NCBI GenBank assembly: GCA_964016885.1
Contig: OZ024743.1
Location: forward strand, 325,686,001-325,750,000
Direction of reading: 5' to 3'
Length of the DNA stretch: 64,000 bases
Source of the DNA: Eledone cirrhosa
Lineage: Eukaryota
Shown: one piece after another, positions 10,625-64,000 of the stretch
Position numbering within the stretch: position 1 is the stretch's first letter
Layout: each line of letters starts with the position of its first letter
The notes under the pieces: model-generated
Database searches by the model: none
Seen by the model: the letters and a program-made list of their open reading frames with translations, nothing else
What the model was told of the DNA's origin: nothing
Translations under genes and position numbers: made by a program

Positions 10625-13390
10625 TCAGGTGTAGTTTTGGCGTATTTTGGGAAGCATGAGTGTCTTAAAGGATGCAGTGTCTCGGCAGCTAACAATTGAC
10701 GCAGGCAGTTTGTTCCATGCTTCAGCAACTCTGAGCGTGAAAAAATGTCTGCGAAAGTCATGGGAGCTGTGCTGTTTTCTTATCTTGTAGGCATGTCCAC
10801 GTGTGTTAGACACATGGAGATCAAAGAGGCGCTCAGGGTTGCAGTTGGCGAGATGGTTAAAAACTGTGTGGGTATTCACCAAGTCCATTGCCAGACGTCG
10901 GAGCTTCAATGAATCCATGCCCAGGGAAGCAAGGCGTTCAGAGTATGGTAGGTGTCTGATGGAGGGTATGCGCTTGGTTGCACGTCTCTGAACAGTTTCC
11001 AGGAGGTCAATGTTCCGAGCAAGATAGGGGTTCCAGACTGATGATGCGAATTCCAAGTGTGGTCGCACCATAGCTGTATACAGTTTTAAATAGATGGCTG
11101 GAGAGCGGCTAACAAAGGTCTTGCTGAGTGATGCCAAGACACCCTCGGCCTTCTTGACAATCTTAGAGACATGCTTTGTCCAACGCAAATCGTTGCTGAC
11201 AGTAATGCCCAGGTCACGTTCACAAGAGGACTTTTTGATGTCAGTGTTGTGGAGGGAGTATGTGGACGCTGGATTTTTCCTTCCAAAATGCATGGTGGTA
11301 CACTTGTCCACAGCCAGCTTCAGTTGCCAGTCTGTGATCCATTGCTGCATTGTGTCCAGGTCTGATTGTAGGAAAGAGTTGTAAATTTCAGGATCAGTCC
11401 TTTTGATTTCAAGGTACAGCTTGATGTCATCTGCATATTTTAGTACCGTGGCATTCTGTAAGTTGGCATCTATGTCATTAATATATGCCACAAACAAAAG
11501 AGGACCAAGAACAGATCCCTGTGGTACACCAGATGACATCTCATATGGTGAAGAATGCTGTCCTAGAACCGTGACTACTTCCTTTCGGCTGAGAATGAAG
11601 GATTTCAGCCAGTCGAAAAGATCATCCCTCACACCCATTGCAGAGAGTTTTGCCATAAGTCTTTTGTGTGGCACAGAATTAAAAGCCTTAGCAAAGTCAA
11701 GGTAAACAACATCCACCCATGAGCCGCTGTCAGTGATCCGGGTGATGTCCTCAAGAAACTCGATAAGCTGATCACAGCAGCTGGAGTTAGGGATAAATCC
11801 AAACTGTGAGGGCCGGATGAGGCTGTGAGAGCTCCAGAAGTTCCAAAGTGTTTCTCTGACACAGGATTCCATCAGTTTGGCCATACAGCTAGTAAGACTG
11901 ACTGGACGATAGTTGACAGGTGACATGCGGTTGCCCTTTTTGAACAGGGGAATGACACTGGCAGTTTTCCACTGCTCCGGAGTAGCACCATTGCTGAGAC
12001 AGTATTGAAAGAAAAAAGAAAGCTGGCGCAAAAGGAAATCCCCGCCACGTTTGAGAAGCAGGTATGTCACACCATCAAGACCAGGGGAGGCATAGTTGTG
12101 CTTATTCTTAAGGTGACGTCGCAACATTGCAGGTGTAAATTCCATAGTTGTTATGGAATTTGATGTTAGAGATGGTGGAGATGGTACATTCTGGTCTTCA
12201 ACAGTAAAAATACTTGCATAGCACTCAGCAATGAGTTCTGCGCATTCCTTGGGATTGTCAGTGATCTGGCTTGTGTGGGGATTGCGAAGAGGACCAACTG
12301 GAGAGTGAGGTCTCTGCTTTGAATGAACATATTTCCAGAACACCTTACTGTCAGGATTGGTTGCGATGCACTGTTCAAATTCAAGCACTGCCTTCTTTGT
12401 CACTTGCTTGAGATGGTTAGAAGATTTATTCCGCTTTTTTCTGTTGGCATCTGATCTATGCAGTTTATATTCCCGTTCAGCGTTCCGACGTTCTTTCCTG
12501 GCAAGTCGGACCGCTGAAGTTTCCCAGATTGCACTTTTGGGGTGGTTATTTTTCCGCTTCCGTGGCACTGATGTTGCACACGCTATCCATATTGAGTCCA
12601 GGATGCTCTGGAGTATAGAGTTCACATCTCCAGATTTATACATCTCATGCCAGTTTGGGCGCTGTAGCTCAGTGCAGTACAAGTTCCAATCCGCCCTCTT
12701 CCAATCAAAGCAAGCAGATTGGAGATGGCCCTGGTTTTTGTTGCTGCCCTCAAGTGCCAGATTGGCAATGATCATAGCATGATCAGAGTCGCCTAGAGGT
12801 TCCTCAGTAGTACAACTGATAACCACTTCAGGAGTAGTGGTGAAGATCAGGTCCAAAGTGTTGTCACCTCTTGTTGGAGAGGTGACTACTTGTGACCAGT
12901 TTGAGTCCAGCACTAGTTGAAGGAAATCGTTTGCACCCTGTGGCCAACGAAAGGTTTCCCAATCGATCTCAGGATGATTGAAGTCACCTGCAATAAACAC
13001 ATAAGTGGCTGTTTTCTTGGCAGCAACTCTGAGGATATCGCAAAGCTGTGTGTCCTGATGGTAGTTTGGGGGTCGATAAACAACACCAAGCAGAAGTGTT
13101 GACATGGTCATACGTATGTCACAGAAAAAAACTTCTTCCTGTGATTCGTTCAAATCAACGCAAGGAATTACCGAAAAGTTTGAACGAACGTAGACCATCA
13201 CACCACCACCACGGCGGTTAATGCGGTCCTTACGGAAAAGGTTGTACCCAGTAATGGTGAAAACCCCATCACAGAGTAAGGAATGTGCCCATGTTTCCGT
13301 GACTGTGATGAAGTCAGGGTCGATGCTTCTGACGTAGGATTCGAACAGATGTATCTTGTTGCATAAACTGCGAGCATTTAATGACAACAA
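10625..13390 (-). CDS. CR1 ORF2: AP endonuclease + reverse transcriptase (frame open upstream to at least 13456, no upstream ATG)
   Basis: LNARSL, TETW, YRPP, GDFN, LDL and SDH (APE motifs); NYRPVSLT, QFGF, LDFAKAF, GVPQGSVLGP, YADD and DLG (RT motifs); no stops. Confidence 0.95.
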   Translation of the reverse strand: MLSLNARSLCNKIHLFESYVRSIDPDFITVTETWAHSLLCDGVFTITGYNLFRKDRINRRGGGVMVYVRSNFSVIPCVDLNESQEEVFFCDIRMTMSTLLLGVVYRPPNYHQDTQLCDILRVAAKKTATYVFIAGDFNHPEIDWETFRWPQGANDFLQLVLDSNWSQVVTSPTRGDNTLDLIFTTTPEVVISCTTEEPLGDSDHAMIIANLALEGSNKNQGHLQSACFDWKRADWNLYCTELQRPNWHEMYKSGDVNSILQSILDSIWIACATSVPRKRKNNHPKSAIWETSAVRLARKERRNAEREYKLHRSDANRKKRNKSSNHLKQVTKKAVLEFEQCIATNPDSKVFWKYVHSKQRPHSPVGPLRNPHTSQITDNPKECAELIAECYASIFTVEDQNVPSPPSLTSNSITTMEFTPAMLRRHLKNKHNYASPGLDGVTYLLLKRGGDFLLRQLSFFFQYCLSNGATPEQWKTASVIPLFKKGNRMSPVNYRPVSLTSCMAKLMESCVRETLWNFWSSHSLIRPSQFGFIPNSSCCDQLIEFLEDITRITDSGSWVDVVYLDFAKAFNSVPHKRLMAKLSAMGVRDDLFDWLKSFILSRKEVVTVLGQHSSPYEMSSGVPQGSVLGPLLFVAYINDIDANLQNATVLKYADDIKLYLEIKRTDPEIYNSFLQSDLDTMQQWITDWQLKLAVDKCTTMHFGRKNPASTYSLHNTDIKKSSCERDLGITVSNDLRWTKHVSKIVKKAEGVLASLSKTFVSRSPAIYLKLYTAMVRPHLEFASSVWNPYLARNIDLLETVQRRATKRIPSIRHLPYSERLASLGMDSLKLRRLAMDLVNTHTVFNHLANCNPERLFDLHVSNTRGHAYKIRKQHSSHDFRRHFFTLRVAEAWNKLPASIVSCRDTASFKTLMLPKIRQNYT

Positions 13391-13446
13391 TTTGTACCCT
13401 GCTTGCAGTTTATGATGGTGTGTAGAGGGTGGCAGGTTGTTCTGGT

Positions 13447-14844
13447 TTAGTTTCCCAGAGTTGTAGCAGTTTTTACATTGCCAGTTATTGCGGGTAGATC
13501 ACACTCAGACCAGCTGGTATCTCTCTTCCACGTTTCACCAGCCTTGACAAACCTCCAGATCTGCCCATCATCACGCAGACTGAAACTTTCATCTTGTGCT
13601 GAGTTCCGATTCAAGGAAGCTGCAGCACGTAGTTTTGGACGTACATGGGGTGGTAGGCCTGGGCGTGTTCGGAAGGTAATCCGATTTTCACGCACAGCTT
13701 TAGCAGAGGCCAGATGATATGAGGTTGCCTCTGCGGGGTCCGAGAAAGACAGCCTGATGAGTCTGGGTTTTGGACCAGGTCGACCAAGGCGGAGGGCACC
13801 CTTTGGGGGAACACAGCCTAGGTCTTTGGCTGAGCTGGCAGCAAATGCCTGAAGATCAGCCTTGTCCTCTGGTACCCCAATGGCAATCACTTCATGGGTA
13901 GCAGATTCCGCAGTCTTTTCAGTCTTTCCAGCAAGAGGTACAGGGAGATTCTTTAGCAAGGCATTCCGATAAGACCCCTCATTGTGGGGTCCTACCCGAA
14001 TGCTTGCCTCTATTCCTGCAACTTCCCTTCTCAGAGCAGAAATCATTAGTTGCAGTTCCGCAAAATCTGTACTGGTCGGTTGTTGTTGTTGTTGTTGTTG
14101 CTGCTGCTGCTGCTGTCGTTGTTGGTGATGATGATGTTCCTCCACGGGAATGGCAGGGGAGGACACAGTCGCAGGTTGTTGCTGTTGTTGGTGATGATGA
14201 TGTTCCTCCACGGGAATGGCAGGGGAGGACACAGTCGCAGGTTGTTGCTGTTGTTGTTGTTGGTGATGATGATGTTCCTCCACGGGAATGGTAGGGGAAG
14301 ACACAGTCACCAGTTGTTGGTGTCGAGATGTACTGGGAGTGGAAGACATGGGTTGTTGTTGTTTCTGATGTTCTCCCACAGGAATAACAGTAGAAGCCAG
14401 TGTCATAGATTTTTGCCGTTGTTCAGTAACAATGGTAGAGGAAGACACAGTCATTGGTTTTTGTTGTTGTTGTTGTTTTTCAATAACATTAATAACATTC
14501 GTGGAGGCAGGCACACAGGCCAGACACTGAAAGGACCAGGATTTTAGCTGGACCATCTCCCATATTCCATCCATCATAGCATTATGATGTCTCTTTTTTT
14601 GGCCTGGGATCCTCCGGAAGCCTGTGGCGCATTGAAGGCAGACAGAGATGCGACAGGTTCCACATTCGACCCAGCGATTACGGAACGAGTTTTCGGGTTC
14701 CGCACAGATATGGCAGATGTGATTTTCTGGGCAATGTTCTATCTTGGGACATCGGCCGGTTTTGTCGCATATTTCATCGATGGATATCACCATGGCAATT
14801 TTGTTATTTCTACCCATCCGTAGAAAAACACAGAATGTAAACAA
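13447..14844 (-). CDS. CR1 ORF1: PHD-like Cys cluster, Q/H-rich repeats, coiled-coil-like segment
   Basis: CHIC..WVECGTC..VCLQC..WSFQCLAC; KPRLIRLSF motif typical of LINE ORF1; lies directly 5' of ORF2. The true start may be the ATG at ~14817. Confidence 0.88.
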   Translation of the reverse strand: MFTFCVFLRMGRNNKIAMVISIDEICDKTGRCPKIEHCPENHICHICAEPENSFRNRWVECGTCRISVCLQCATGFRRIPGQKKRHHNAMMDGIWEMVQLKSWSFQCLACVPASTNVINVIEKQQQQQKPMTVSSSTIVTEQRQKSMTLASTVIPVGEHQKQQQPMSSTPSTSRHQQLVTVSSPTIPVEEHHHHQQQQQQQPATVSSPAIPVEEHHHHQQQQQPATVSSPAIPVEEHHHHQQRQQQQQQQQQQQQPTSTDFAELQLMISALRREVAGIEASIRVGPHNEGSYRNALLKNLPVPLAGKTEKTAESATHEVIAIGVPEDKADLQAFAASSAKDLGCVPPKGALRLGRPGPKPRLIRLSFSDPAEATSYHLASAKAVRENRITFRTRPGLPPHVRPKLRAAASLNRNSAQDESFSLRDDGQIWRFVKAGETWKRDTSWSECDLPAITGNVKTATTLGN

Positions 14845-24497: not shown

Positions 24498-25125
24498 AAA
24501 TATAAGTATGTATACGTACATACATATATGTATACAGACGTACAGTAGTATGTATATATATACATACATGCACACATATATATATGTACGTATGGATTTA
24601 CCGAACATTTATTATAATGTTTGGTTTGTTTGTAAACAAAAGTATCAGCCGTACTAAGAGTGAGAAATGAAATTCCGTTTCATTCTTTTCCATTTATCGT
24701 TTTCAGCACGCCCGGCCGACTAACTCACTCGATATGCAAATTAGGCTGCTCAGCCGTTAATATGCATAAGGAAAGTATATACTTTCAAACATTCAATCAT
24801 CTGAAGGTATACGATGCTGACGGATAGCTAATAAGCTTGAAACTAGTACATCGTTCCTGTGTCAGTGTTTAACAAAAAGGTGACGATGGTTGCGAACACT
24901 GTACGGCTTAATTAGGGATGTTTGTTTGTTTACAAACAAACCGAACATTATAATAAATGTTTGGTAAACCCATACGTACATATATATGTGTGCATGTATG
25001 TATATATATACATACTACTGTACGTCTGTATACATATATGTATGTACGTATACATACTTATATTTAAGTATCAGCCGTACTAAGAGTGAGAAATGAAATT
25101 TCGTTTCATTCTTTTCCATTTATAG
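24498..25125 (+). mobile_element. Non-coding hammerhead element, family A (retrozyme- or PLE-like): inverted partial arm plus 1.1 tandem monomers of ~427 nt
   Basis: 24498-24640 is the reverse complement of ~24925-25066; AGTATCAGCCGTACTAAGAG recurs at ~24641 and ~25067; 10-bp flanking duplication TTGATATATC (24488-24497, 25126-25135). Confidence 0.8.
24811..24854 (+). ncRNA. Minimal type I hammerhead ribozyme variant
   Basis: ACGAUG CUGACGGA U AGCU-aaua-AGCU U GAAAC UA GUA CAUCGU: perfect 6-bp stem I and palindromic ACUAGU stem III; extra G in the core. Confidence 0.65.
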
Positions 25126-29755: not shown

Positions 29756-30079
29756 TATGTGTATGCATATACAGAAATGTGTGTGTGTGTACATGCATAA
29801 ATATAGGTATGCCTATCATCATCATCATCATCATCATCATCGTTGTCACTGTTTAATGTCCATTTTCCACGCTAGCATGTGTTGGAGGAGTTGTCATTTT
29901 TGAGGCAAGTCAGATCAGGTGACCATGTCTTGCTCACACAGAACCTTAGCAAGGAGCAGAGATTGAAAGGGTAACATAATTACCTTAGCAGAGGACAGGG
30001 ATTGAAAGGGCAACAGAGCATCAAAGGGCAACAGAATTACCTTAGCAGGGGACAAAGCATCAAAGGGCAACAGAATTAC

Positions 30080-30427
30080 CTTAGCAGGGGAGAGAGCATC
30101 AAAGGGTAGCACATCTGTTATGAGAGCATTATGGCAGCCATACATGGCCCAGGAAGTACTGTAAGTGACACGACATTTGGTCCCAACCAACTCCTGCAAC
30201 CTTTCAGTTAACTTTCGGTTTTCTTCTTCATCTTCATCCTCCTCCTTATCATCATCATCATCATCATCATTACTGTTTTCCCCTCTTCTCTCTGTTCCTC
30301 CATCATTAAACTTTTTCATCCTGTCAACTATGTCACCAGAACAGTTGGGCTGCAGTTCACTACCGGAACAACCAGCCGACACCTCGGGAGGAGAATTTTT
30401 AGTAAAGTTGACATCAGAGAGTGAAGC
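30080..30427 (-). CDS. ZGPAT: ZGPAT coding exon 4 (first donor shown; alternative donors downstream)
   Basis: cag|GCT TCA CTC ... GCT AAG|gtaatt; LVGTKCRVTYSTSW...HNALI resembles the ZGPAT segment before the zinc finger; 348 nt, phase 0/0. Confidence 0.87.
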
Positions 30428-31472
30428 CTGAAATTATAGAATGGAATGCTTTCATTAACAATTAGAAACAGGTAATAACAGGTATATATACACATACATA
30501 TAAGTATATATATTATATGTGGTTTGTAGTTTCAGTTTACTGCATATATATTGGTGATAGGAAGGGTACCTAGCCATAGAATACTTGGAGTCGAAAGGAC
30601 CCTTCAGTTGTGTCAAAGTCCTATCATCTAAACTATCAGTTTAGATGAAAAATTTGTTTCCATGAGTTCCAGTTTCACTCTGATGTTGGAGATATTTAAA
30701 AATCTTCCTTTAATCCAATCATTCTTGCAAATTTACTGAGAGGGAAATAAATTACCATTCCTTTATTGTGCATGTTTCAATTCGTTTCTTGTGTGTCTTA
30801 TTATACATCCATGTGCCTGTCTATACTCTACTAACTATTGTATTAGTAATAATAATAATTGTTATTGGTATTGTTATTAATATTATTTATTTTATGCCTT
30901 AAGATACCTGCATGTCAGTCTGTATTCTAACCCGCTGTTTGCTTTAATTCACATTTCCTTCTTCCTCAATCTTTCTATCAGATTGTAATAACCCATTTCC
31001 ATATATATATATATACATATATATATATGCACACATACATGTATATGTATATACACATATATATATGCACACATACATATATATATACACACACATATAG
31101 ATATTTGTGTGTGTTAGTGTATATGATTGTGTTTTTAAATCTTTTTTTTTTTCTTCAAGATGTTTCATATTTCCTTATTGTTCTTTGTGTTTAGGTTGCA
31201 ACAATAATGTTCCTCTCTATCTATTATCATTTCTTTATCTCATCTTCTGAATAATATATGATGATAGCAGCCCTTTCCTGCGGCAAAGTATCGTCTCAAT
31301 GATGTAACTGCTAAAATCATCATCGCCCAAATTTAAAATTATTTAACTATTAACTACTGGTTGATTTATTATGTGCTATATCAGTGTGTTGAGGTTTTGT
31401 TATTTACACTTTACTGTTTATTAAGAAAATGACATGATTTCTGCTGTTATACTTTATAATATAGAGTATAGA

Positions 31473-40175: not shown

Positions 40176-40876
40176 ACGTTAAGTTACAATCTTATTAGTG
40201 AAATTTTAGTAAATTCTTCAAAATTCTTCATTAATTAATTGAAATAGTATATTTCATTACAAATGGTCATGAAAGGGTTATTTTTTATTTTAATTTTAAA
40301 AAAAAAAAAAATTTTTCACTTGAATTTCTCTGCTTATCCAACGTGTCTTTTTAAAGACAGTAGGGTATGAATTGAGAGAGATTTGACTGCTACTTCTAGC
40401 ATATTGAACAGCTATATATGTGTCTGTTTCCACGTTAGCACAGTAGTCTCCAGTGTTGTTATTTGGGTTTACATAGAGTTATCTCCCACCAACCTTTTCT
40501 ACGATGAATGCTATTTTTTTAAATAAGATGATAGAGAAACTTAATATCTAATTCGTTGTAAATATTCATATACTCGAACTCTACCGAACGCTTTCTTTTC
40601 GTGCTGGTCGCCATCGAAACTATTGATGTCTTCTGTTCTCAGACTGCCGTTTTCCTCTGCAAAATTGGGAGGAATGCATCTTACGTGAAGTGAAGTGGCT
40701 GATGTAGCGGGAGTCACTGGCTGTTCTCCCCTTCCTATTACTTTCAGTATTTTTTCCTCTCTTTTTTTATTGCAAACCTTATATAATATAATTGATATTT
40801 GTTGAATAAATGGATTCGTCACTTCACATCTCACAACGTGGTTTTTCAACTTAGACATGTTAGTATAAATAATTGT

Positions 40877-41519
40877 AAATATAAGTATGTATACGTACAT
40901 ACATATATGTATACAGACGTACAGTAGTATGTATATATATATATACATACATGCACACACATATATATATGTACGTATGGATTTACCGAACATTTATTAT
41001 AATGCTCGGTTTGTTTGTAAACAAACATCCTGAATTAAGCCGTACAGGGTTTAGCAACCGTCGATGCTCTTTTGTTCAATACTGACAAAGGAACGCTGTA
41101 CTAGTTTCAAGCTTGTTAGCTATCGTCAGCACCGTATACCTTGCTGCCAGATGATTGAACGATCCTTGTGCATATTAACGGCTGAGCAGCCTAATTTGCA
41201 TATCGAGTGAGTTAATCGGCCAGGCGCACGGAAAATGATAAATGGAAAAAAATGAAACGAAATTTCATTTCTCACTCTTAGTACGGCTGTTACTTAAATA
41301 TAAGTATGTATACGTACATACATATATGTATGCATGTATGTATATATATACATACTACTGTACGTCTGTATACATATATGTATGTACGTATACATACTTA
41401 TATTTAAGTAACAGCTGTACTAAGAGTCAGAAATGAAATTTCGTTTCATTTTTTCCATTTATCGTTTTCGGTGCGCCCGGCCGATTAACTCACTCGATAT
41501 GCAAATTAGGCTGCTCAGC
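40877..41519 (-). mobile_element. Non-coding hammerhead element, family A, second copy (different permutation, inverted arm at 41331-41519)
   Basis: Alignable to 24498-25125; minus-strand monomer plus partial repeat, then strand inversion near 41330. Confidence 0.8.
41093..41135 (-). ncRNA. Minimal hammerhead variant (family A)
   Basis: ACGGUG CUGACGA U AGCU-aaca-AGCU U GAAAC UA GUA CAGCGU; canonical CUGANGA/GAAA core, one mismatch in stem I, U-U closing stem II. Confidence 0.7.
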
Positions 41520-41522
41520 GCA

Positions 41523-41579
41523 CTGATGAAAGCGCACCATAATTTGTCTTGGTTGCCCTTGAAATATGTATAATAAAGT
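41523..41579 (+). ncRNA. Hammerhead (Naiad-like type) lacking the 5' strand of stem I
   Basis: CUGAUGA AAG.GCA.CCA-loop-UGG.UGC.CUU GAAAU AUGU AUA AUAAAGU; same 3' half as the 46348 and 48462 motifs. Confidence 0.6.
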
Positions 41580-42243: not shown

Positions 42244-42281
42244 GCCCTGATGAGTCCCTAATAGGACGAAACATTGTCGGC
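42244..42281 (+). ncRNA. Canonical minimal type I hammerhead ribozyme
   Basis: GCC CUGAUGA GUCC-cuaaua-GGAC GAAAC auu GUC GGC, immediately followed by AAUAAA and a (TA)n tract. Confidence 0.88.
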
Positions 42282-42566: not shown

Positions 42567-42796
42567 CAGGAGTATATATATATATATATATATATATTTG
42601 TGTGGGGAGGGGAAGAGTCAGGACCCCAACAGCTGAGCTCCAGCCGTTTCGACACCTGTCGAAACGGCCGCTGCTCAGCCGTCGGGGTCCTGACTCTTTT
42701 TCTATTGCCCACTCAACTACCCTAAGTATCGAGTAGTATGGTGCGTTATGGTCCACCTGGTTTCTTACCATACTTCCTTGTTATATATATATATAT

Positions 42797-43653
42797 ATAT
42801 AGAAATCACATGAATCAAAGTTCTGTTCAAACCATTTATTAGCTCACAATTGTTTCGTCCAAACCGAGGTTTGGTGTCTTCGGAGCAATTTTTCAATGAT
42901 TGTTTACATACATGACCTCCTTTCCAACATAAGAGACATACAGAAACATATGTATATATCAATGCACAGTGGGATGACATCCATTATAATATTTTAGCAT
43001 GGCAATATACATTCAAAAATTAAAATCATATTAAAAGAAAATTAAAACAAAATTAAAGTTAAAATACAACATCGGCAGTTTACGAAGTGGATAGTTTGAA
43101 ATAGTTAGTGTATGCAATAGTTACACGTGTGTCTTATTTATATAAGATTAATGTGCGGCAAGGTGTTATATGCAATACAAGCACTTTAAGCGGGTAATCA
43201 AGCAATACAACCCCCATAATACTCTTGATTACCCGCTTAAAGTGCTTGTATTGCATATAACACCTTGCCGCACATTAATCTTATATAAATAAGACACACG
43301 TGCATGCCCCACGTGTAACTATTGCATACACTAACTACTTCAAACTATCCTCTTGCATTATCTTCGTAAACTGCCGATGTTGTATTTTAACTTTAATTTT
43401 GTTTTAATTTTCTTTTAATATGATTTTAATTTTTGAATGTATATTGCCATGCTAAAATATTATAATGGATGTCATCCCACTGTGCATCGATATATACATA
43501 TGTTTCTGTATGTCTCTTATGTTGGAAAAGAGGTCATGTATGTAAACAATCATTGAAAAATTGCTCCGAAGACACCAAACCTCGGTTTGGACGAAACAAT
43601 TGTAAGCTAATAAATGGTTTGAACAGAACTTTGATTCATGTGATTTCTATATA
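42797..43653. repeat. Long palindrome (~410-430-bp arms, ~21-nt spacer) with a hammerhead-like motif near each outer end
   Basis: 42797-43202 is the reverse complement of 43224-43653 with a few indels; motif GCU CCGAAGA..CCAAACC-uc-GGUUUGG..GAAAC AAUU GUA AGC at 43563-43607. Confidence 0.88.
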
Positions 43654-46400: not shown

Positions 46401-46641
46401 TTAATTGACCAAAAGAACATCTATTTTATTAATATTTGTATTTTAATATTAATAACTCTGGAAAATATTTTCTGTAGAGTGCTTCCAATCTACTGTAAAA
46501 CTTATTCTTTGATGTACTCATTGAATCTTGTTTAACTCTTTAATATATATTGATGAGGGACTAATTTTATAATATGTAACCCATGTGCAACCACGCAGTT
46601 TACCTCTTTCTTCCCATGTTTTTCATATATATATATATATA

Positions 46642-47285
46642 TAAACAATTAAGTTAAAAATGTACATCTACATATGCATACTGAAATACTAGTGTGTATA
46701 TGAATACACACACGTATACATATGTAGGTGTACCAAGTCTTTCACTGGTCGCTTTACAGCGAGCGGCCCAGCCACTCTGTATGTAAACACACAGACAAAC
46801 CGGTTTTTAGAGTCATACTGGTTTTGGGGGGAACACCTTCCCCCTATTCTCCAGAAAGCCAGACAAGGAATATTGAACTAGTTTCGTTGTTGTTACAACT
46901 CATCAGCAATATTTACCTATCTACCGGCCTTTCTGGAGAATTGTAAAAGCACATATCGTTATATGCTTTTTCTATGAAAATTAGTAGTGGGCAGACTAAT
47001 TTGCAAGCGTCAGTCATACAAAAGTGAGTTACAAACGAAACGAAATTTAATTTCGTTTCGTTATTTGTTTTTATCGTCTCCGCTGGACCGGTGCGTACTC
47101 ACACTCTATGCAAATTAGTCTGCCCACTACTAATTTTCATAGAAAAAGCATATAACGATACGTGCACATATTTCAGTATGCATATGTAGATGTACATTTT
47201 TAACTTAATTGTTTAAGCGTCAGTCATACAAAAGTGAGTTACAAACGAAACGAAATTTAATTTCGTTTCGTTATTTGTTTTTATA
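46642..47285 (-). mobile_element. Non-coding hammerhead element, family B (~465-nt monomer) with an inverted, internally deleted second copy
   Basis: 46642-46688 is inverted at ~47168-47215, and 46949-47005 at ~47109-47165; AGCGTCAGTCATACAAAAG is duplicated at ~47006 and ~47216; octamer at 47108-47115. Confidence 0.8.
46869..46913 (-). ncRNA. Hammerhead ribozyme with perfect core (family B)
   Basis: AAUAUUG CUGAUGA GUUG-uaacaa-CAAC GAAAC UA GUU CAAUAUU; 7-bp stem I, G-C closed stem II, palindromic ACUAGU stem III. Confidence 0.9.
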
Positions 47286-47378
47286 TATATATATATAAAA
47301 TCAATAATAATGAGTTCAAATCTCAGGCGATCATTTACAATGAAATAGCTCGAAGAAAGAGTATTTCTGAGCCGTGTA

Positions 47379-47735
47379 ATATAGGTTAACACAAATCAAT
47401 ATATTTGATAAACACAAATATCCTCATATTTATGTTTGTATTGTAAATGACCAAGTTAGCTAGATAGAAATATACTAATAATAATATTACAGTTTGCCTA
47501 TCATGACTTAAGATAATACATCATAAATCAACAAATCAACAAAAACAAATTGTATTGGCAACGGCCATTGCCAATACAATTTGTTTTTGTTGATTTATGA
47601 TGTATTATCTTAAGTCATGATAGGCAAACTGTAATATTATTATTAGTATATTTCTATCTAGCTAACTTGGTCATTTACAATACAAACATAAATATGAGGA
47701 TATTTGTGTTTATCAAATATATTGATTTGTGTTAA

Positions 47736-47742
<7 letters not shown>
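47379..47742. repeat. Near-perfect palindrome (~180-bp arms, 6-nt loop CGGCCA)
   Basis: Arms are reverse-complementary apart from an ~8-nt duplication in the left arm. Confidence 0.92.
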
Positions 47743-47821
<79 letters not shown>

Positions 47822-48284
47822 TGGAGGCACATGGCATTGGCCTTGCAATCGAAAGGTTGTGAGTTCAATTCTCAGACCGGGTGATGTGTTGTTTCCTTGA
47901 GCAAGAGACTTTATTTCACATTGCTCCAGTTTACTCAGCTGTAGAAATGAGATGTTAGGGACTGGGGTCCCTATCATTCCACTGCAAAGTGGTCGTGGAG
48001 GTGCCACGACAAAAAAGCACCCAGCCCACACTGTAAATGAGGTTGGTGTTAGGAAGGGCATCCAGCTGTAGAAATCGAGCCAGAATCAGTTCCCCGTCCC
48101 ACCCTTGCAAGCAGGGAAAAGCGGACGTAAAATGATGATGATGATGATGACCAAAGATTAGTATGGTTCGTTGATTACTCAACGAATACAATTTAGAAGC
48201 ACTCGACAAAAAAAGTTTTCCTGGAGTTTTTAATATTATTCAAAATGTTAACAAATGAAAAATATTCACATAATCAAAATATAT

Positions 48285-48348
48285 ACTTTATTATATATAT
48301 TTCAAAGGTACTGTGTTGTTTTTTCAGTACATCCTCATCAGACAAAAT
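48285..48348 (-). ncRNA. Hammerhead ribozyme (left arm of the 48.4-kb palindrome)
   Basis: Reverse complement of 48462-48525. Confidence 0.72.
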
Positions 48349-48461
48349 ATATGATTTGATATATGACATACCACTACGGTCTTGACTATTCAATTCCAGT
48401 ATTGCCAATACTGGAATTGAATAGTCAAGACCGTAGCGGTATGTCATATATCAAATCATAT

Positions 48462-48525
48462 ATTTTGTCTGATGAGGATGTACTGAAAAAACAACACAGT
48501 ACCTTTGAAATATATATAATAAAGT
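48462..48525 (+). ncRNA. Hammerhead ribozyme (right arm of the 48.4-kb palindrome)
   Basis: AUUUUGU CUGAUGA GGA.GUACUG-loop-CAGUAC.UUU GAAAU AUAU AUA AUAAAGU; related to the Naiad-arm motif. Confidence 0.72.
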
Positions 48526-48585
48526 ATATATTTTGATTATGTGAATATTTTTCATTTGTTAATATTTTGAATAATATATATATAT

Positions 48586-59549: not shown

Positions 59550-62500
59550 TGATAAAATACACTCAGTACACTGGTAGTGTTGGTGCCAGATAAAATACAC
59601 TCAGTACACTGGTAGTGTTGGTGTCAGATAAAATACACTCAGTACACTGGTAGTGTTGGTGTCAGATAAAATACACTCAGTACACTGGTAGTATTGGTGT
59701 CAGATAAAATACACTCAGTACACTGGTAGTGTTGGTGTCAGATAAAATACACTCAGTACACTGGTAGTGTTGGTGTCAGATAAAATACACTCAGTACACT
59801 GGTAGTATTGGTGTCAGATAAAATACACTCAGTACACTGGTAGTATTGGTGTCAGATAAAATACACTCAGTACACTGGTAGTATTGGTGTCAGATAAAAT
59901 ACACTCAGTACACTGGTAGTGTTGGTGTCAGATAAAATACACTCAGTACACTGGTAGTGTTGGTGTCAGATAAAATACACTCAGTACACTGGTAGTGTTG
60001 GTGTCAGATAAAATACACTCAGTACACTGGTAGTATTGGTGTCAGATAAAATACACTCAGTACACTGGTAGTGTTGGTGTCAGATAAAATACACTCAGTA
60101 CACTGGTAGTATTGGTGTCAGATAAAATACACTCAGTACACTGTTAGTATTGGTGTCAGATAAAATACACTCAGTACACTGGTAGTATTGGTGTCAGATA
60201 AAATACACTCAGTACACTGGTAGTGTTGGTGTCAGATAAAATACACTCAGTACACTGGTAGTGTTGGTGTCAGATAAAATACACTCAGTACACTGGTAGT
60301 GTTGGTGTCAGATAAAATACACTCAGTACACTGGTAGTATTGGTGTCAGATAAAATACACTCAGTACACTGTTAGTATTGGTGTCAGATAAAATACACTC
60401 AGTACACTGGTAGTATTGGTGTCAGATAAAATACACTCAGTACACTGGTAGTGTTGGTGTCAGATAAAATACACTCAGTACACTGGTAGTATTGGTGTCA
60501 GATAAAATACACTCAGTACACTGGTAGTGTTGGTGTCAGATAAAATACACTCAGTACACTGGTAGTGTTGGTGTCAGATAAAATACACTCAGTACACTGG
60601 TAGTATTGGTGTCAGATAAAATACACTCAGTACACTGGTAGTGTTGGTGTCAGATAAAATACACTCAGTACACTGGTAGTGTTGGTGTCAGATAAAATAC
60701 ACTCAGTACACTGGTAGTATTGGTGTCAGATAAAATACACTCAGTACACTGGTAGTGTTGGTGTCAGATAAAATACACTCAGTACACTGGTAGTATTGGT
60801 GTCAGATAAAATACACTCAGTACACTGGTAGTATTGGTGTCAGATAAAATACACTCAGTACACTGGTAGTGTTGGTGTCAGATAAAATACACTCAGTACA
60901 CTGGTAGTGTTGGTGTCAGATAAAATACACTCAGTACACTGGTAGTATTGGTGTCAGATAAAATACACTCAGTACACTGGTAGTGTTGGTGTCAGATAAA
61001 ATACACTCAGTACACTGGTAGTGTTGGTGTCAGATAAAATACACTCAGTATACTGGTAGTGTTGGTGTCAGATAAAATACACTCAGTACACTGGTAGTGT
61101 TGGTGTCAGATAAAATACACTCAGTACACTGGTAGTGTTGGTGTCAGATAAAATACACTCAGTACACTGGTAGTGTTGGTGTCAGATAAAATACACTCAG
61201 TACACTGGTAGTATTGGTGTCAGATAAAATACACTCAGTACACTGGTAGTGTTGGTGTCAGATAAAATACACTCAGTACACTGGTAGTATTGGTGTCAGA
61301 TAAAATACACTCAGTACACTGGTAGTATTGGTGTCAGATAAAATACACTCAGTACACTGGTAGTGTTGGTGTCAGATAAAATACACTCAGTACACTGGTA
61401 GTGTTGGTGTCAGATAAAATACACTCGGTATACTGGTAGTGTTGGTGTCAGATAAAATACACTCGGTATACTGGTAGTGTTGGTGTCAGATAAAATACAC
61501 TCAGTACACTGCTAGTGTTGGTGTCAGATAAAATACACTCAGTACACTGGTAGTGTTGGTGTCAGATAAAATACACTCAGTACACTGGTAGTGTTGGTGT
61601 CAGATAAAATACACTCAGTACACTGGTAGTGTTGGTGTCAGATAAAATACACTCAGTACACTGGTGGTGTTGGTGCCAGATAAAATACACTCAGTACACT
61701 GGTGGTGTTGGTGTCAGATAAAATACACTCAGTACACTGGTAGTGTTGGTGTCAGATAAAATACACTCAGTACACTGGTAGTGTTGGTGTCAGATAAAAT
61801 ACACTCAGTACACTGGTAGTATTGGTGTCAGATAAAATACACTCAGTACACTGGTAGTGTTGGTGTCAGATAAAATACACTCAGTACACTGGTAGTGTTG
61901 GTGTCAGATAAAATACACTCAGTACACTGGTAGTGTTGGTGTCAGATAAAATACACTCAGTACACTGGTAGTATTGGTGTCAGATAAAATACACTCAGTA
62001 CACTGGTAGTATTGGTGTCAGATAAAATACACTCAGTACACTGGTAGTGTTGGTGTCAGATAAAATACACTCAGTACACTGGTAGTATTGGTGTCAGATA
62101 AAATACACTCAGTACACTGGTAGTATTGGTGTCAGATAAAATACACTCAGTACACTGGTAGTATTGGTGTCAGATAAAATACACTCAGTACACTGGTAGT
62201 ATTGGTGTCAGATAAAATACACTCAGTACACTGGTAGTATTGGTGTCAGATAAAATACACTCAGTACACTGGTAGTGTTGGTGTCAGATAAAATACACTC
62301 AGTACACTGGTAGTATTGGTGTCAGATAAAATACACTCAGTACACTGGTAGTGTTGGTGTCAGATAAAATACACTCAGTACACTGGTAGTATTGGTGTCA
62401 GATAAAATACACTCAGTACACTGGTAGTATTGGTGTCAGATAAAATACACTCAGTACACTGGTAGTGTTGGTGTCAGATAAAATACACTCAGTACACTGG

Positions 62501-64000
62501 TAGTATTGGTGTCAGATAAAATACACTCAGTACACTGGTAGTATTGGTGTCAGATAAAATACACTCAGTACACTGGTAGTATTGGTGTCAGATAAAATAC
62601 ACTCAGTACACTGGTAGTATTGGTGTCAGATAAAATACACTCAGTACACTGGTAGTGTTGGTGTCAGATAAAATACACTCAGTATACTGGTAGTGTTGGT
62701 GTCAGATAAAATACACTCAGTACACTGGTAGTGTTGGTGTCAGATAAAATACACTCAGTACACTGGTAGTATTGGTGTCAGATAAAATACACTCAGTACA
62801 CTGGTAGTATTGGTGTCAGATAAAATACACTCAGTACACTGGTAGTGTTGGTGTCAGATAAAATACACTCAGTACACTGGTAGTGTTGGTGCCAGATAAA
62901 ATACACTCAGTACACTGGTAGTATTGGTGTCAGATAAAATACACTCAGTACACTGGTAGTGTTGGTGTCAGATAAAATACACTCAGTACACTGGTAGTGT
63001 TGGTGTCAGATAAAATACACTCAGTACACTGGTGGTGTTGGTGTCAGATAAAATACACTCAGTACACTGGTAGTATTGGTATCAGATAAAATACACTCAG
63101 TACACTGGTAGTATTGGTGTCAGATAAAATACACTCAGTACACTGGTAGTGTTGGTGTCAGATAAAATACACTCAGTACACTGGTAGTATTGGTGTCAGA
63201 TAAAATACACTCAGTACACTGGTAGTATTGGTGTCAGATAAAATACACTCAGTACACTGGTAGTATTGGTGTCAGATAAAATACACTCAGTACACTGGTA
63301 GTGTTGGTGTCAGATAAAATACACTCAGTACACTGGTAGTATTGGTGTCAGATAAAATACACTCAGTACACTGGTAGTATTGGTGTCAGATAAAATACAC
63401 TCAGTACACTGGTAGTGTTGGTGTCAGATAAAATACACTCAGTACACTGGTAGTGTTGGTGCCAGATAAAATACACTCAGTACACTGGTAGTATTGGTGT
63501 CAGATAAAATACACTCAGTACACTGGTAGTGTTGGTGTCAGATAAAATACACTCAGTACACTGGTAGTGTTGGTGTCAGATAAAATACACTCAGTACACT
63601 GGTGGTGTTGGTGTCAGATAAAATACACTCAGTACACTGGTAGTATTGGTATCAGATAAAATACACTCAGTACACTGGTAGTGTTGGTGTCAGATAAAAT
63701 ACACTCAGTATACTGGTAGTGTTGGTGTCAGATAAAATACACTCAGTACACTGGTAGTATTGGTGTCAGATAAAATACACTCAGTACACTGGTAGTATTG
63801 GTGTCAGATAAAATACACTCAGTACACTGGTAGTGTTGGTGTCAGATAAAATACACCCAGTACACTGGTGGTGTTGGTGTCAGATAAAATACACTCAGTA
63901 CACTGGTAGTGTTGGTGTCAGATAAAATACACTCAGTACACTGGTAGTATTGGTGTCAGATAAAATACACTCAGTACACTGGTAGTGTTGGTGTCAGATA
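59550..64000. repeat. Homogeneous 38-bp tandem satellite (>115 copies, runs off the window) in a GALK2 intron
   Basis: Unit GTCAGATAAAATACACTCAGTACACTGGTAGT(G/A)TTGGT; no spacers. Confidence 0.97.

Follow-up and report, generated by a model that had tools for sequence, protein, structure and literature searches.

A 467-nt non-coding repeat in the genome of Eledone cirrhosa is probably a young retrozyme that resides in TA microsatellites, cuts itself, becomes circular and is copied in rolling-circle fashion by a Penelope-like element of the Hydra clade. A more specific version is put forward only tentatively: the arrays of this family would record single A-to-I-edited circles, reverse-transcribed from two sites by one Hydra-clade enzyme, whose 68-nt tail the retrozyme would mimic without homology. 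The repeat was found in a stretch of 64,000 nucleotides (the window), positions 325686001-325750000 of contig OZ024743.1, in a 3.0-Gb genome.

Anatomy of the insertion

Positions 46642..47285 of the window contain a rearranged two-armed insertion of the unit, which is numbered here from the predicted ribozyme cut (the cut lies between 467 and 1). The (TA)n target microsatellite is recognizable on the left (46624..46641) and on the right (47285..47297). The left arm (46642..47005, minus strand) consists of unit positions 338-467 followed by 1-234, crosses the ribozyme cut site without a break and has four differences from a natural tandem unit; its outer end is designated site A. On the plus strand, the right arm is composed of an inner piece (47005..47165, unit 234-394) and an outer piece (47169..47284, unit 188-303), the outer end of which is designated site B, with 260 nt of the unit absent between the two pieces (an internal deletion). 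The 'tail', which extends from site A (234) to site B (303) and has a long hairpin, is situated at 47216..47284 (plus). An octamer, ATGCAAAT, occupies 47108..47115 (plus; unit 337-344) and forms the 5′ arm of a hairpin in the fold of the unit.

Every feature named in the initial annotation was found where it had been placed. There is, though, no contiguous monomer at the locus, as had been claimed, and there is a single ribozyme. The head-to-tail junction reported at ~47215 does exist as a junction point, but its position is internal (234/235) in a permuted unit; the hairpins are likewise present, but two of them had been given from the strand opposite the ribozyme. It is apparent that the unit lacks coding capacity, as had been proposed: when the tandem trimer was scanned, the longest ATG-started frame was 20 aa, and the RT + GIY-YIG ORF of an autonomous Penelope-like element was absent.

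A high-copy family

Exact genome matches numbered 6,724 for a 25-mer just after the cut site (control, 0) and 4,470 for a 40-mer spanning that site, while the junction of end B with (TA)n gave 2,316 matches, a lower bound on the number of insertions. Copies are dispersed, range from monomers to multimers and have no ORF attached. The unit repeats head-to-tail inside (TA)n, with a tandem spacing of 467 nt, in arrays of up to ~30 units, and both tandem and permuted copies, which had been suggested as a check on the retrozyme proposal, were found genome-wide. The length first given as ~465 nt proved to be 467 nt (461-470 nt across 202 full cut-to-cut units from 64 loci). The ribozyme core is kept in nearly all of these units, which fall into three main subfamilies that differ by as much as 13%; the G+C content of the unit is 38%. 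Judged by its sequence, the repeat is a young, high-copy, new family of retrozymes of the non-LTR type, and the proposal of a non-autonomous hammerhead retrozyme family agrees with the data in every respect in which sequence can be compared with that class.

An older sister retrozyme family has a unit of about 435-472 nt, the same layout and a GUA triplet. Two of its insertions are situated in the window, at 24500-25125 (unit match 24640-25120) and at 40860-41520, and 2,741 candidates, with tandem copies present, were detected genome-wide. Its tail (A to B) measures 54-58 nt, and it carries the same octamer block.

Two further observations concern the distribution of the unit. Contigs from the sequencing runs (kind unrecorded) of two other organisms cover parts of it. 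In the array at L285:1265-6306 (C744), one subfamily haplotype gives way to another no more than 70 nt from the point at which the ribozyme is predicted to cut; a template switch or a hetero-multimer is a possible origin of this change.

The hammerhead and the fold of the unit

A type I hammerhead (46869..46913, minus) was identified from its core, its fold and its Rfam model score. The core, CTGATGA, lies at 46900-46906 and is accompanied by a 7-bp stem I (46907-46913 / 46869-46875), a 5-bp stem II followed by GAAA, and a minimal palindromic stem III, with a predicted cut after GUU, between 46876 and 46875. An extension of stem I (46847..46940, minus), for which there is evidence from folding and covariation, includes a 12-bp helix (46929-46940 / 46847-46858) and closes the unit across the cut site. 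The 111-nt ribozyme hairpin has a fold z of -4.6, a value equalled in 0 of 200 shuffles. The match to Rfam Hammerhead_HH9 (38.6 bits, E 4.3e-8) falls below the cut-off of 52, and an Rfam scan of the whole 64-kb window gave zero matches at the gathering score. The hammerhead had been described as perfect, which is correct for the core and not for the remainder, in that stem III comprises 1-2 pairs round a palindrome and U stands at residue 17. Across the 64 sequences compared, that residue is U in 41, C in 22 and G in one.

Cleavage as a dimer is plausible for the 467-nt unit. In the folding model, a two-copy structure is feasible and reaches -20.4 kcal/mol, as compared with twice -8.5 kcal/mol for single copies. 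An axolotl hammerhead motif with a minimal palindromic stem III is described as needing dimers (PMC7229834). GUU figures among the cleavable hammerhead triplets in the literature, in which a cleavage rate for this triplet was not found. According to a preprint, cleavage in vitro was seen for only 1 of 9 Xenopus retrozymes (bioRxiv 10.64898/2026.07.22.740005).

The unit folded as a circle has an MFE of -162.4 kcal/mol (z -11.8, 40 shuffles), and this fold is branched rather than rod-like. Among 63 distinct units, two-sided covariation was detected at 6 of 142 predicted pairs, one of them in ribozyme stem II; these counts lean towards the structure, which was derived from the same sequences. One-sided changes on the ribozyme strand kept the pair as G-U in 14 cases vs 2 giving A-C (p 0.002, with non-independent sites), and variable columns amounted to 26/284 of those paired vs 49/183 of those unpaired. 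The extensive folding noted at the outset is upheld by the covariation and by the G-U-keeping changes as structure selection on the ribozyme strand.

Insertion ends

The 3′ ends in 68 insertions cluster at two sites, A (224-236) and B (299-305), where they are joined to (TA)n; nearly all of the ends have this context. Single-armed insertions account for 18 of the 68. One A and one B end were found in 43 of 50 two-armed insertions, A|A in one, B|B in none and an unclassifiable end in six. A second sample was drawn from contig 1 and comprised its first 100 B ends (26 loci in common with the set of 68, and one pair that is probably a segmental duplicate); 62 of these were joined to an inverted arm ending at A, 0 to one ending at B, and 38 had no resolved partner. 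The modal spacing from site A to site B is 68 nt (86 retrozyme ends). All of the insertions are primed on the same strand, and the lengths of paired arms are uncorrelated (rho 0.17, p 0.19). A target duplication of ~35 bp was observed at one locus (L104); in general, (TA)n masks target-site duplications.

Insertions of Penelope-like elements are described as having inverted arms and a tail at one end only (PMC8557442), and in vitro the tail arises from two reverse-transcription start sites (PMC11167929). The retrozyme insertions work like this Penelope type, being tandem and inverted, with a one-end tail and two start sites. The least variable stretches of the unit, 222-260 and 272-306, have both end sites inside them, and we infer that the tail, as the most invariant part of the family, is the region in which the reverse transcriptase binds and starts.

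A candidate helper

A Penelope-like family of the same genome, PLE1 (L175:2800-7660; C1:154.87 Mb), is high-copy and young, with intact 758-aa open frames and 94-100% identity among its best 150 hits. It has a tandem unit of 4.8 kb, carries a hammerhead of its own and is rich in microsatellites in its 3′ region. The PLE1 protein was not recognized in Pfam or PDB searches, and PLE1 is assigned to the Hydra clade because of its motifs (DKT, RWR, CxCx5C, CxxC and CxH, compared with those given in PMC8557442).

PLE1 also ends at two sites, with A|B in 3/3 two-armed copies, and its modal A-B spacing of 68 nt (7 ends) is equal to that of the retrozyme. The comparison of spacing covers four Penelope-like families; for the three others, all hammerhead-bearing, the ends are 171-172, 94-96 and 92-96 nt from the anchor motif. 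Between the unit and the PLE1 terminal repeat there is no similarity beyond nested insertions and microsatellite-like DNA, so that the role of PLE1 as helper is drawn from spacing, target and age. A Hydra-clade element of the PLE1 type is a likely candidate for copying the retrozyme RNA. The A/B end rule and the 68-nt spacing common to both support the idea, already expressed in the initial annotation, that Penelope machinery is used.

Two loci considered as retrozyme-Penelope chimeras were rejected: at L020 the Penelope part belongs to an old copy that has an A end of its own, and at L241 a LINE piece intervenes. An ORF directly joined to the unit at C13:27.4 Mb belongs to an old (87-92%) copy with its own A end.

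Nature of the template

The cut site is crossed by 76 of the 100 B arms, twice by 34 and three times by 15, and truncations within 5 nt of it show no enrichment (6/152 vs 3.3 expected, p 0.11). It follows that the main template is something other than cleaved linear monomers. Junctions are exact in 430 of 438 cases, and imprecise template jumping is therefore unlikely. Divergence between units is 0.37% within an arm, 0.22% between the arms of an insertion and 4.02% between loci; one insertion holds 18 identical full units across both arms. In only 16 of 43 cases is the sister arm nearer than any other arm sampled.

Rare changes common to all units of an insertion comprise 32 distinct A>G sites vs 7 T>C sites, as compared with 38 vs 39 for changes in single units (Fisher p 0.0007 against the shared set). 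With four divergent loci removed, the shared ratio is 22:6 (p 0.013). None of these 22 A>G sites has a 5′ G, the background being 22/147; ADAR disfavours a 5′ G. Clustering and a neighbour preference are described for squid editing sites (PMC4384741). Strictly private alleles give an A>G:T>C ratio of 4:3, and fixed subfamily differences are unbiased (A>G 8, T>C 5). Part of the A>G bias could stem from selection for G-U pairs. A haplotype with clustered A>G changes has four genome matches, all in one insertion and in both of its arms, and its A run differs from unit to unit; such a pattern would be left by a single edited circle that had been read several times. In like manner, the uniform arrays would fit one edited circular RNA copied repeatedly. 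The source locus of private haplotypes may be missing from the assembly.

The same element and enzyme could have used another template, an uncut linear multimeric read-through RNA, with the ribozyme slow or otherwise used and with long uniform arrays owing their origin to source arrays that were already uniform and to unequal exchange at the inserted copies. This is the most serious of the alternatives, although we consider it unlikely. It draws on the anole Penelope element, the only in vitro Penelope system, in which uncut RNA served as the chief template and mutation of the ribozyme did not prevent insertion (PMC11167929), as well as on the minimal stem III and the GUU triplet of the unit. 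Several uniform arrays of an octamer-less haplotype could have served as sources, and two long arrays (C1:5.74 Mb and C1:56.39 Mb) carry periodic shared variants, from which it follows that tandem expansion after insertion occurs. Copying from linear RNA should, however, leave edits that are unit-specific, yet it is the shared changes that are biased towards A>G and the single-unit changes that are symmetric. One haplotype without a source in the assembly fills both arms of its insertion, the ribozyme pairs covary, residue 17 avoids G, and a 13-unit arm would require a 6-kb RNA with 12 uncut ribozymes. A circular template is still preferred here.

The octamer

The initial annotation also suggested that the unit may carry its own promoter, of the octamer-containing snRNA type. 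Some features of the octamer invite such a role: its chance expectation is 0.03 per unit, it is intact in 57 of 64 loci, and the 12-nt block round it is identical in the sister family, though the pairing partner differs. The octamer may well be bound by something. That it forms the core of an internal snRNA-type promoter driving the element is nevertheless improbable, given that host U1/U2 genes lack it almost throughout, with one instance, at -399, in 19 upstream sequences. The U1/U2 promoters (L107-L110, L179-L205) contain instead an AATTAA-like box at ~-90, TCAGT at ~-57 and a TATA-like box at ~-30. On the profile of these promoters the unit scores -4.4, vs 16-36 for 8 of 9 true promoters, and does not match, as 22 of 100 shuffles score as well. 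Furthermore, the octamer-less haplotype is represented by 69 copies at 7 loci, in unusually long arrays (up to 17 + 7 units), so the octamer is not needed for spread. Unit positions 240-303, considered separately as a U2-promoter-like region, found no support in the U1/U2 profile.

Other readings of the family

Replication from RNA to RNA in the manner of viroids or satellite RNAs, with the genomic copies as by-products, would be in keeping with the strong circular folds of both strands (z -9.4 for the opposite strand, 40 shuffles, beside the -11.8 given above), with the seeding of 7 loci by one identical haplotype, and with the differences described between mussel circles and genomic copies (PMC7229834). 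We regard it as very improbable, however, since the ribozyme is found on one strand of the unit only, every insertion is primed on the same strand, the fold is not rod-like and the selection for structure is strand-specific; on account of the single-strand ribozyme, the term 'viroid-like', used in the initial annotation, is unsupported in this sense. The notion that the copies are just the usual pseudo-LTR fragments that an autonomous Penelope-like element leaves has in its favour the Penelope type of the ends and the Hydra-type ORF pieces in the flanks of 16 of 140 sampled loci, but is scarcely credible and already largely refuted by ORF-free arrays of up to 30 units, by a PLE1 ribozyme and terminal repeat that differ from those of the unit, and by six inspected ORF junctions, in 0 of which the unit frames the ORF as a terminal repeat.

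Proposed mechanism

The preferred reading, that of a self-cut, circular retrozyme copied by a Penelope-like element, may be set out as a series of steps. Tandem copies would be transcribed, and paired ribozymes would cut the RNA after GUH, probably as dimers, whereupon a host ligase would close the monomer. The resulting circle would sometimes be A-to-I edited in its stems. As the ends suggest, a Penelope-like protein would then cut (TA)n and use the two DNA ends as primers for cDNA, starting at site A from one and at site B from the other. Each cDNA would pass through the cut site, once or many times over, before terminating at one of various scattered positions, and the products would be joined back to back, all of which can be read in the arms themselves; later tandem expansion, evident in the two long arrays, would add units. 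Several results weigh against this explanation, namely the dissimilarity of the PLE1 terminal repeat, the uncut template of the anole element and the periodic variants in arrays. The weakening of the A>G bias in stricter sets, the figure of 16/43 for sister arms, the uncorrelated arm lengths and the cleavage of 1/9 Xenopus retrozymes in vitro count against it as well.

Other features of the window

Hammerhead motifs of a different kind ('family A') were observed at 41523, 43896, 46355, 48341 and 48469 of the window; elsewhere, Hydra-type Penelope copies terminate in motifs resembling these, and their end sites are separated by 92-96 nt. A compact hammerhead motif at 42247-42275 adjoins a (TA)n tract. 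Near-perfect long inverted duplications at 47379-47742, 48233-48577 and 42790-43650 are probably the arms of other Penelope-type insertions. A nearly intact LINE (10625-13498, minus) is represented by an open frame of 957 aa in which endonuclease and reverse-transcriptase domains were recognized. A 38-bp satellite (59551-64000; 117 copies, 97% match) runs past the window end. The stretch 29915-30433 (minus) may be a coding exon of the host; it has an acidic tract as well as short duplications within it, and gave no Pfam match above the cut-off.

Comparison with known systems

Hammerhead viroids and satellite RNAs are likewise small structured circles processed by hammerheads, both of which properties are predicted for the unit. 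They differ from it in that the unit is genome-encoded, has its ribozyme on one strand and spreads through DNA insertions. Newt satellite 2 reportedly has an octamer/snRNA-type promoter, a promoter type that finds no support in the 467-nt unit. It resembles the unit as a tandem hammerhead repeat with a weak stem III, described as cleaving as a dimer (PMC6155905).

Penelope elements of the Hydra clade, as described in PMC8557442, and the anole Poseidon element PAc (PMC11167929) share with the unit tandem and inverted copies, a one-end tail, two starts and (TA)n. The unit differs from Penelope elements in having no ORF, a tail of 68 nt vs their 30-40 bp, and no similarity to the PLE1 terminal repeat. 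As far as its sequence indicates, the 467-nt element works like a Penelope substrate without being a Penelope element.

The closest relatives of the unit are the non-LTR retrozymes described from coral, mussel and axolotl (PMC7229834; bioRxiv 10.64898/2026.07.22.740005), whose tandem units are likewise non-coding and contain one type I hammerhead each. As these sources describe them, the metazoan elements have in common with the unit the absence of an LTR-type layout, thousands of copies, a strongly self-paired circle fold and co-occurring Penelope-like elements, as in the genome studied here. Stem III of the axolotl HHR_Amex1 is like that of the unit, a single pair and a palindromic tetraloop (PMC7229834). 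At 467 nt, the unit is longer than the 170-400 nt given for retrozymes in the 2020 paper (PMC7229834) and within the 51-972 nt given in the preprint (bioRxiv 10.64898/2026.07.22.740005). Unlike the retrozymes in the published descriptions, so far as the sections available extend, the present family has (TA)n and inverted arms, an A/B rule, a matching partner and shared A>G changes.

The retrozyme class and its link to Penelope are already published (PMC7229834; bioRxiv 10.64898/2026.07.22.740005, in the parts available). The preprint ties retrozymes to Penelope by co-occurrence and phylogeny and, in those same parts, favours local satellite-like expansion (bioRxiv 10.64898/2026.07.22.740005); a 2020 review states, in the portion concerned, that retrozyme sequences carry no motif pointing to a helper (PMC7761336). 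Neither source settles which enzyme mobilizes animal retrozymes or whether circles are the template. Searches of open-access literature found no report of this family, its end rule, a matched helper or array editing, though supplements may list cephalopod families. What is new here is a footprint of mobilization, i.e. fixed A and B ends at the two outer ends. The young family described here keeps its reaction products, namely a strict one-A-one-B rule and arrays that resemble single molecules, and the length of the tail singles out one helper family among the four measured. For a direct assay, the family supplies an RNA region (unit 222-306), an enzyme family and the sites at which copying should start, and its end rule bears on the still unexplained mechanism of tandem and inverted Penelope insertion. 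If the more specific version, that of single edited circles copied by one enzyme, is true, RNA editing has been written into germ-line DNA and drives the evolution of the family, and the unit and PLE1 would be the first retrozyme-helper pair amenable to reconstruction in vitro.
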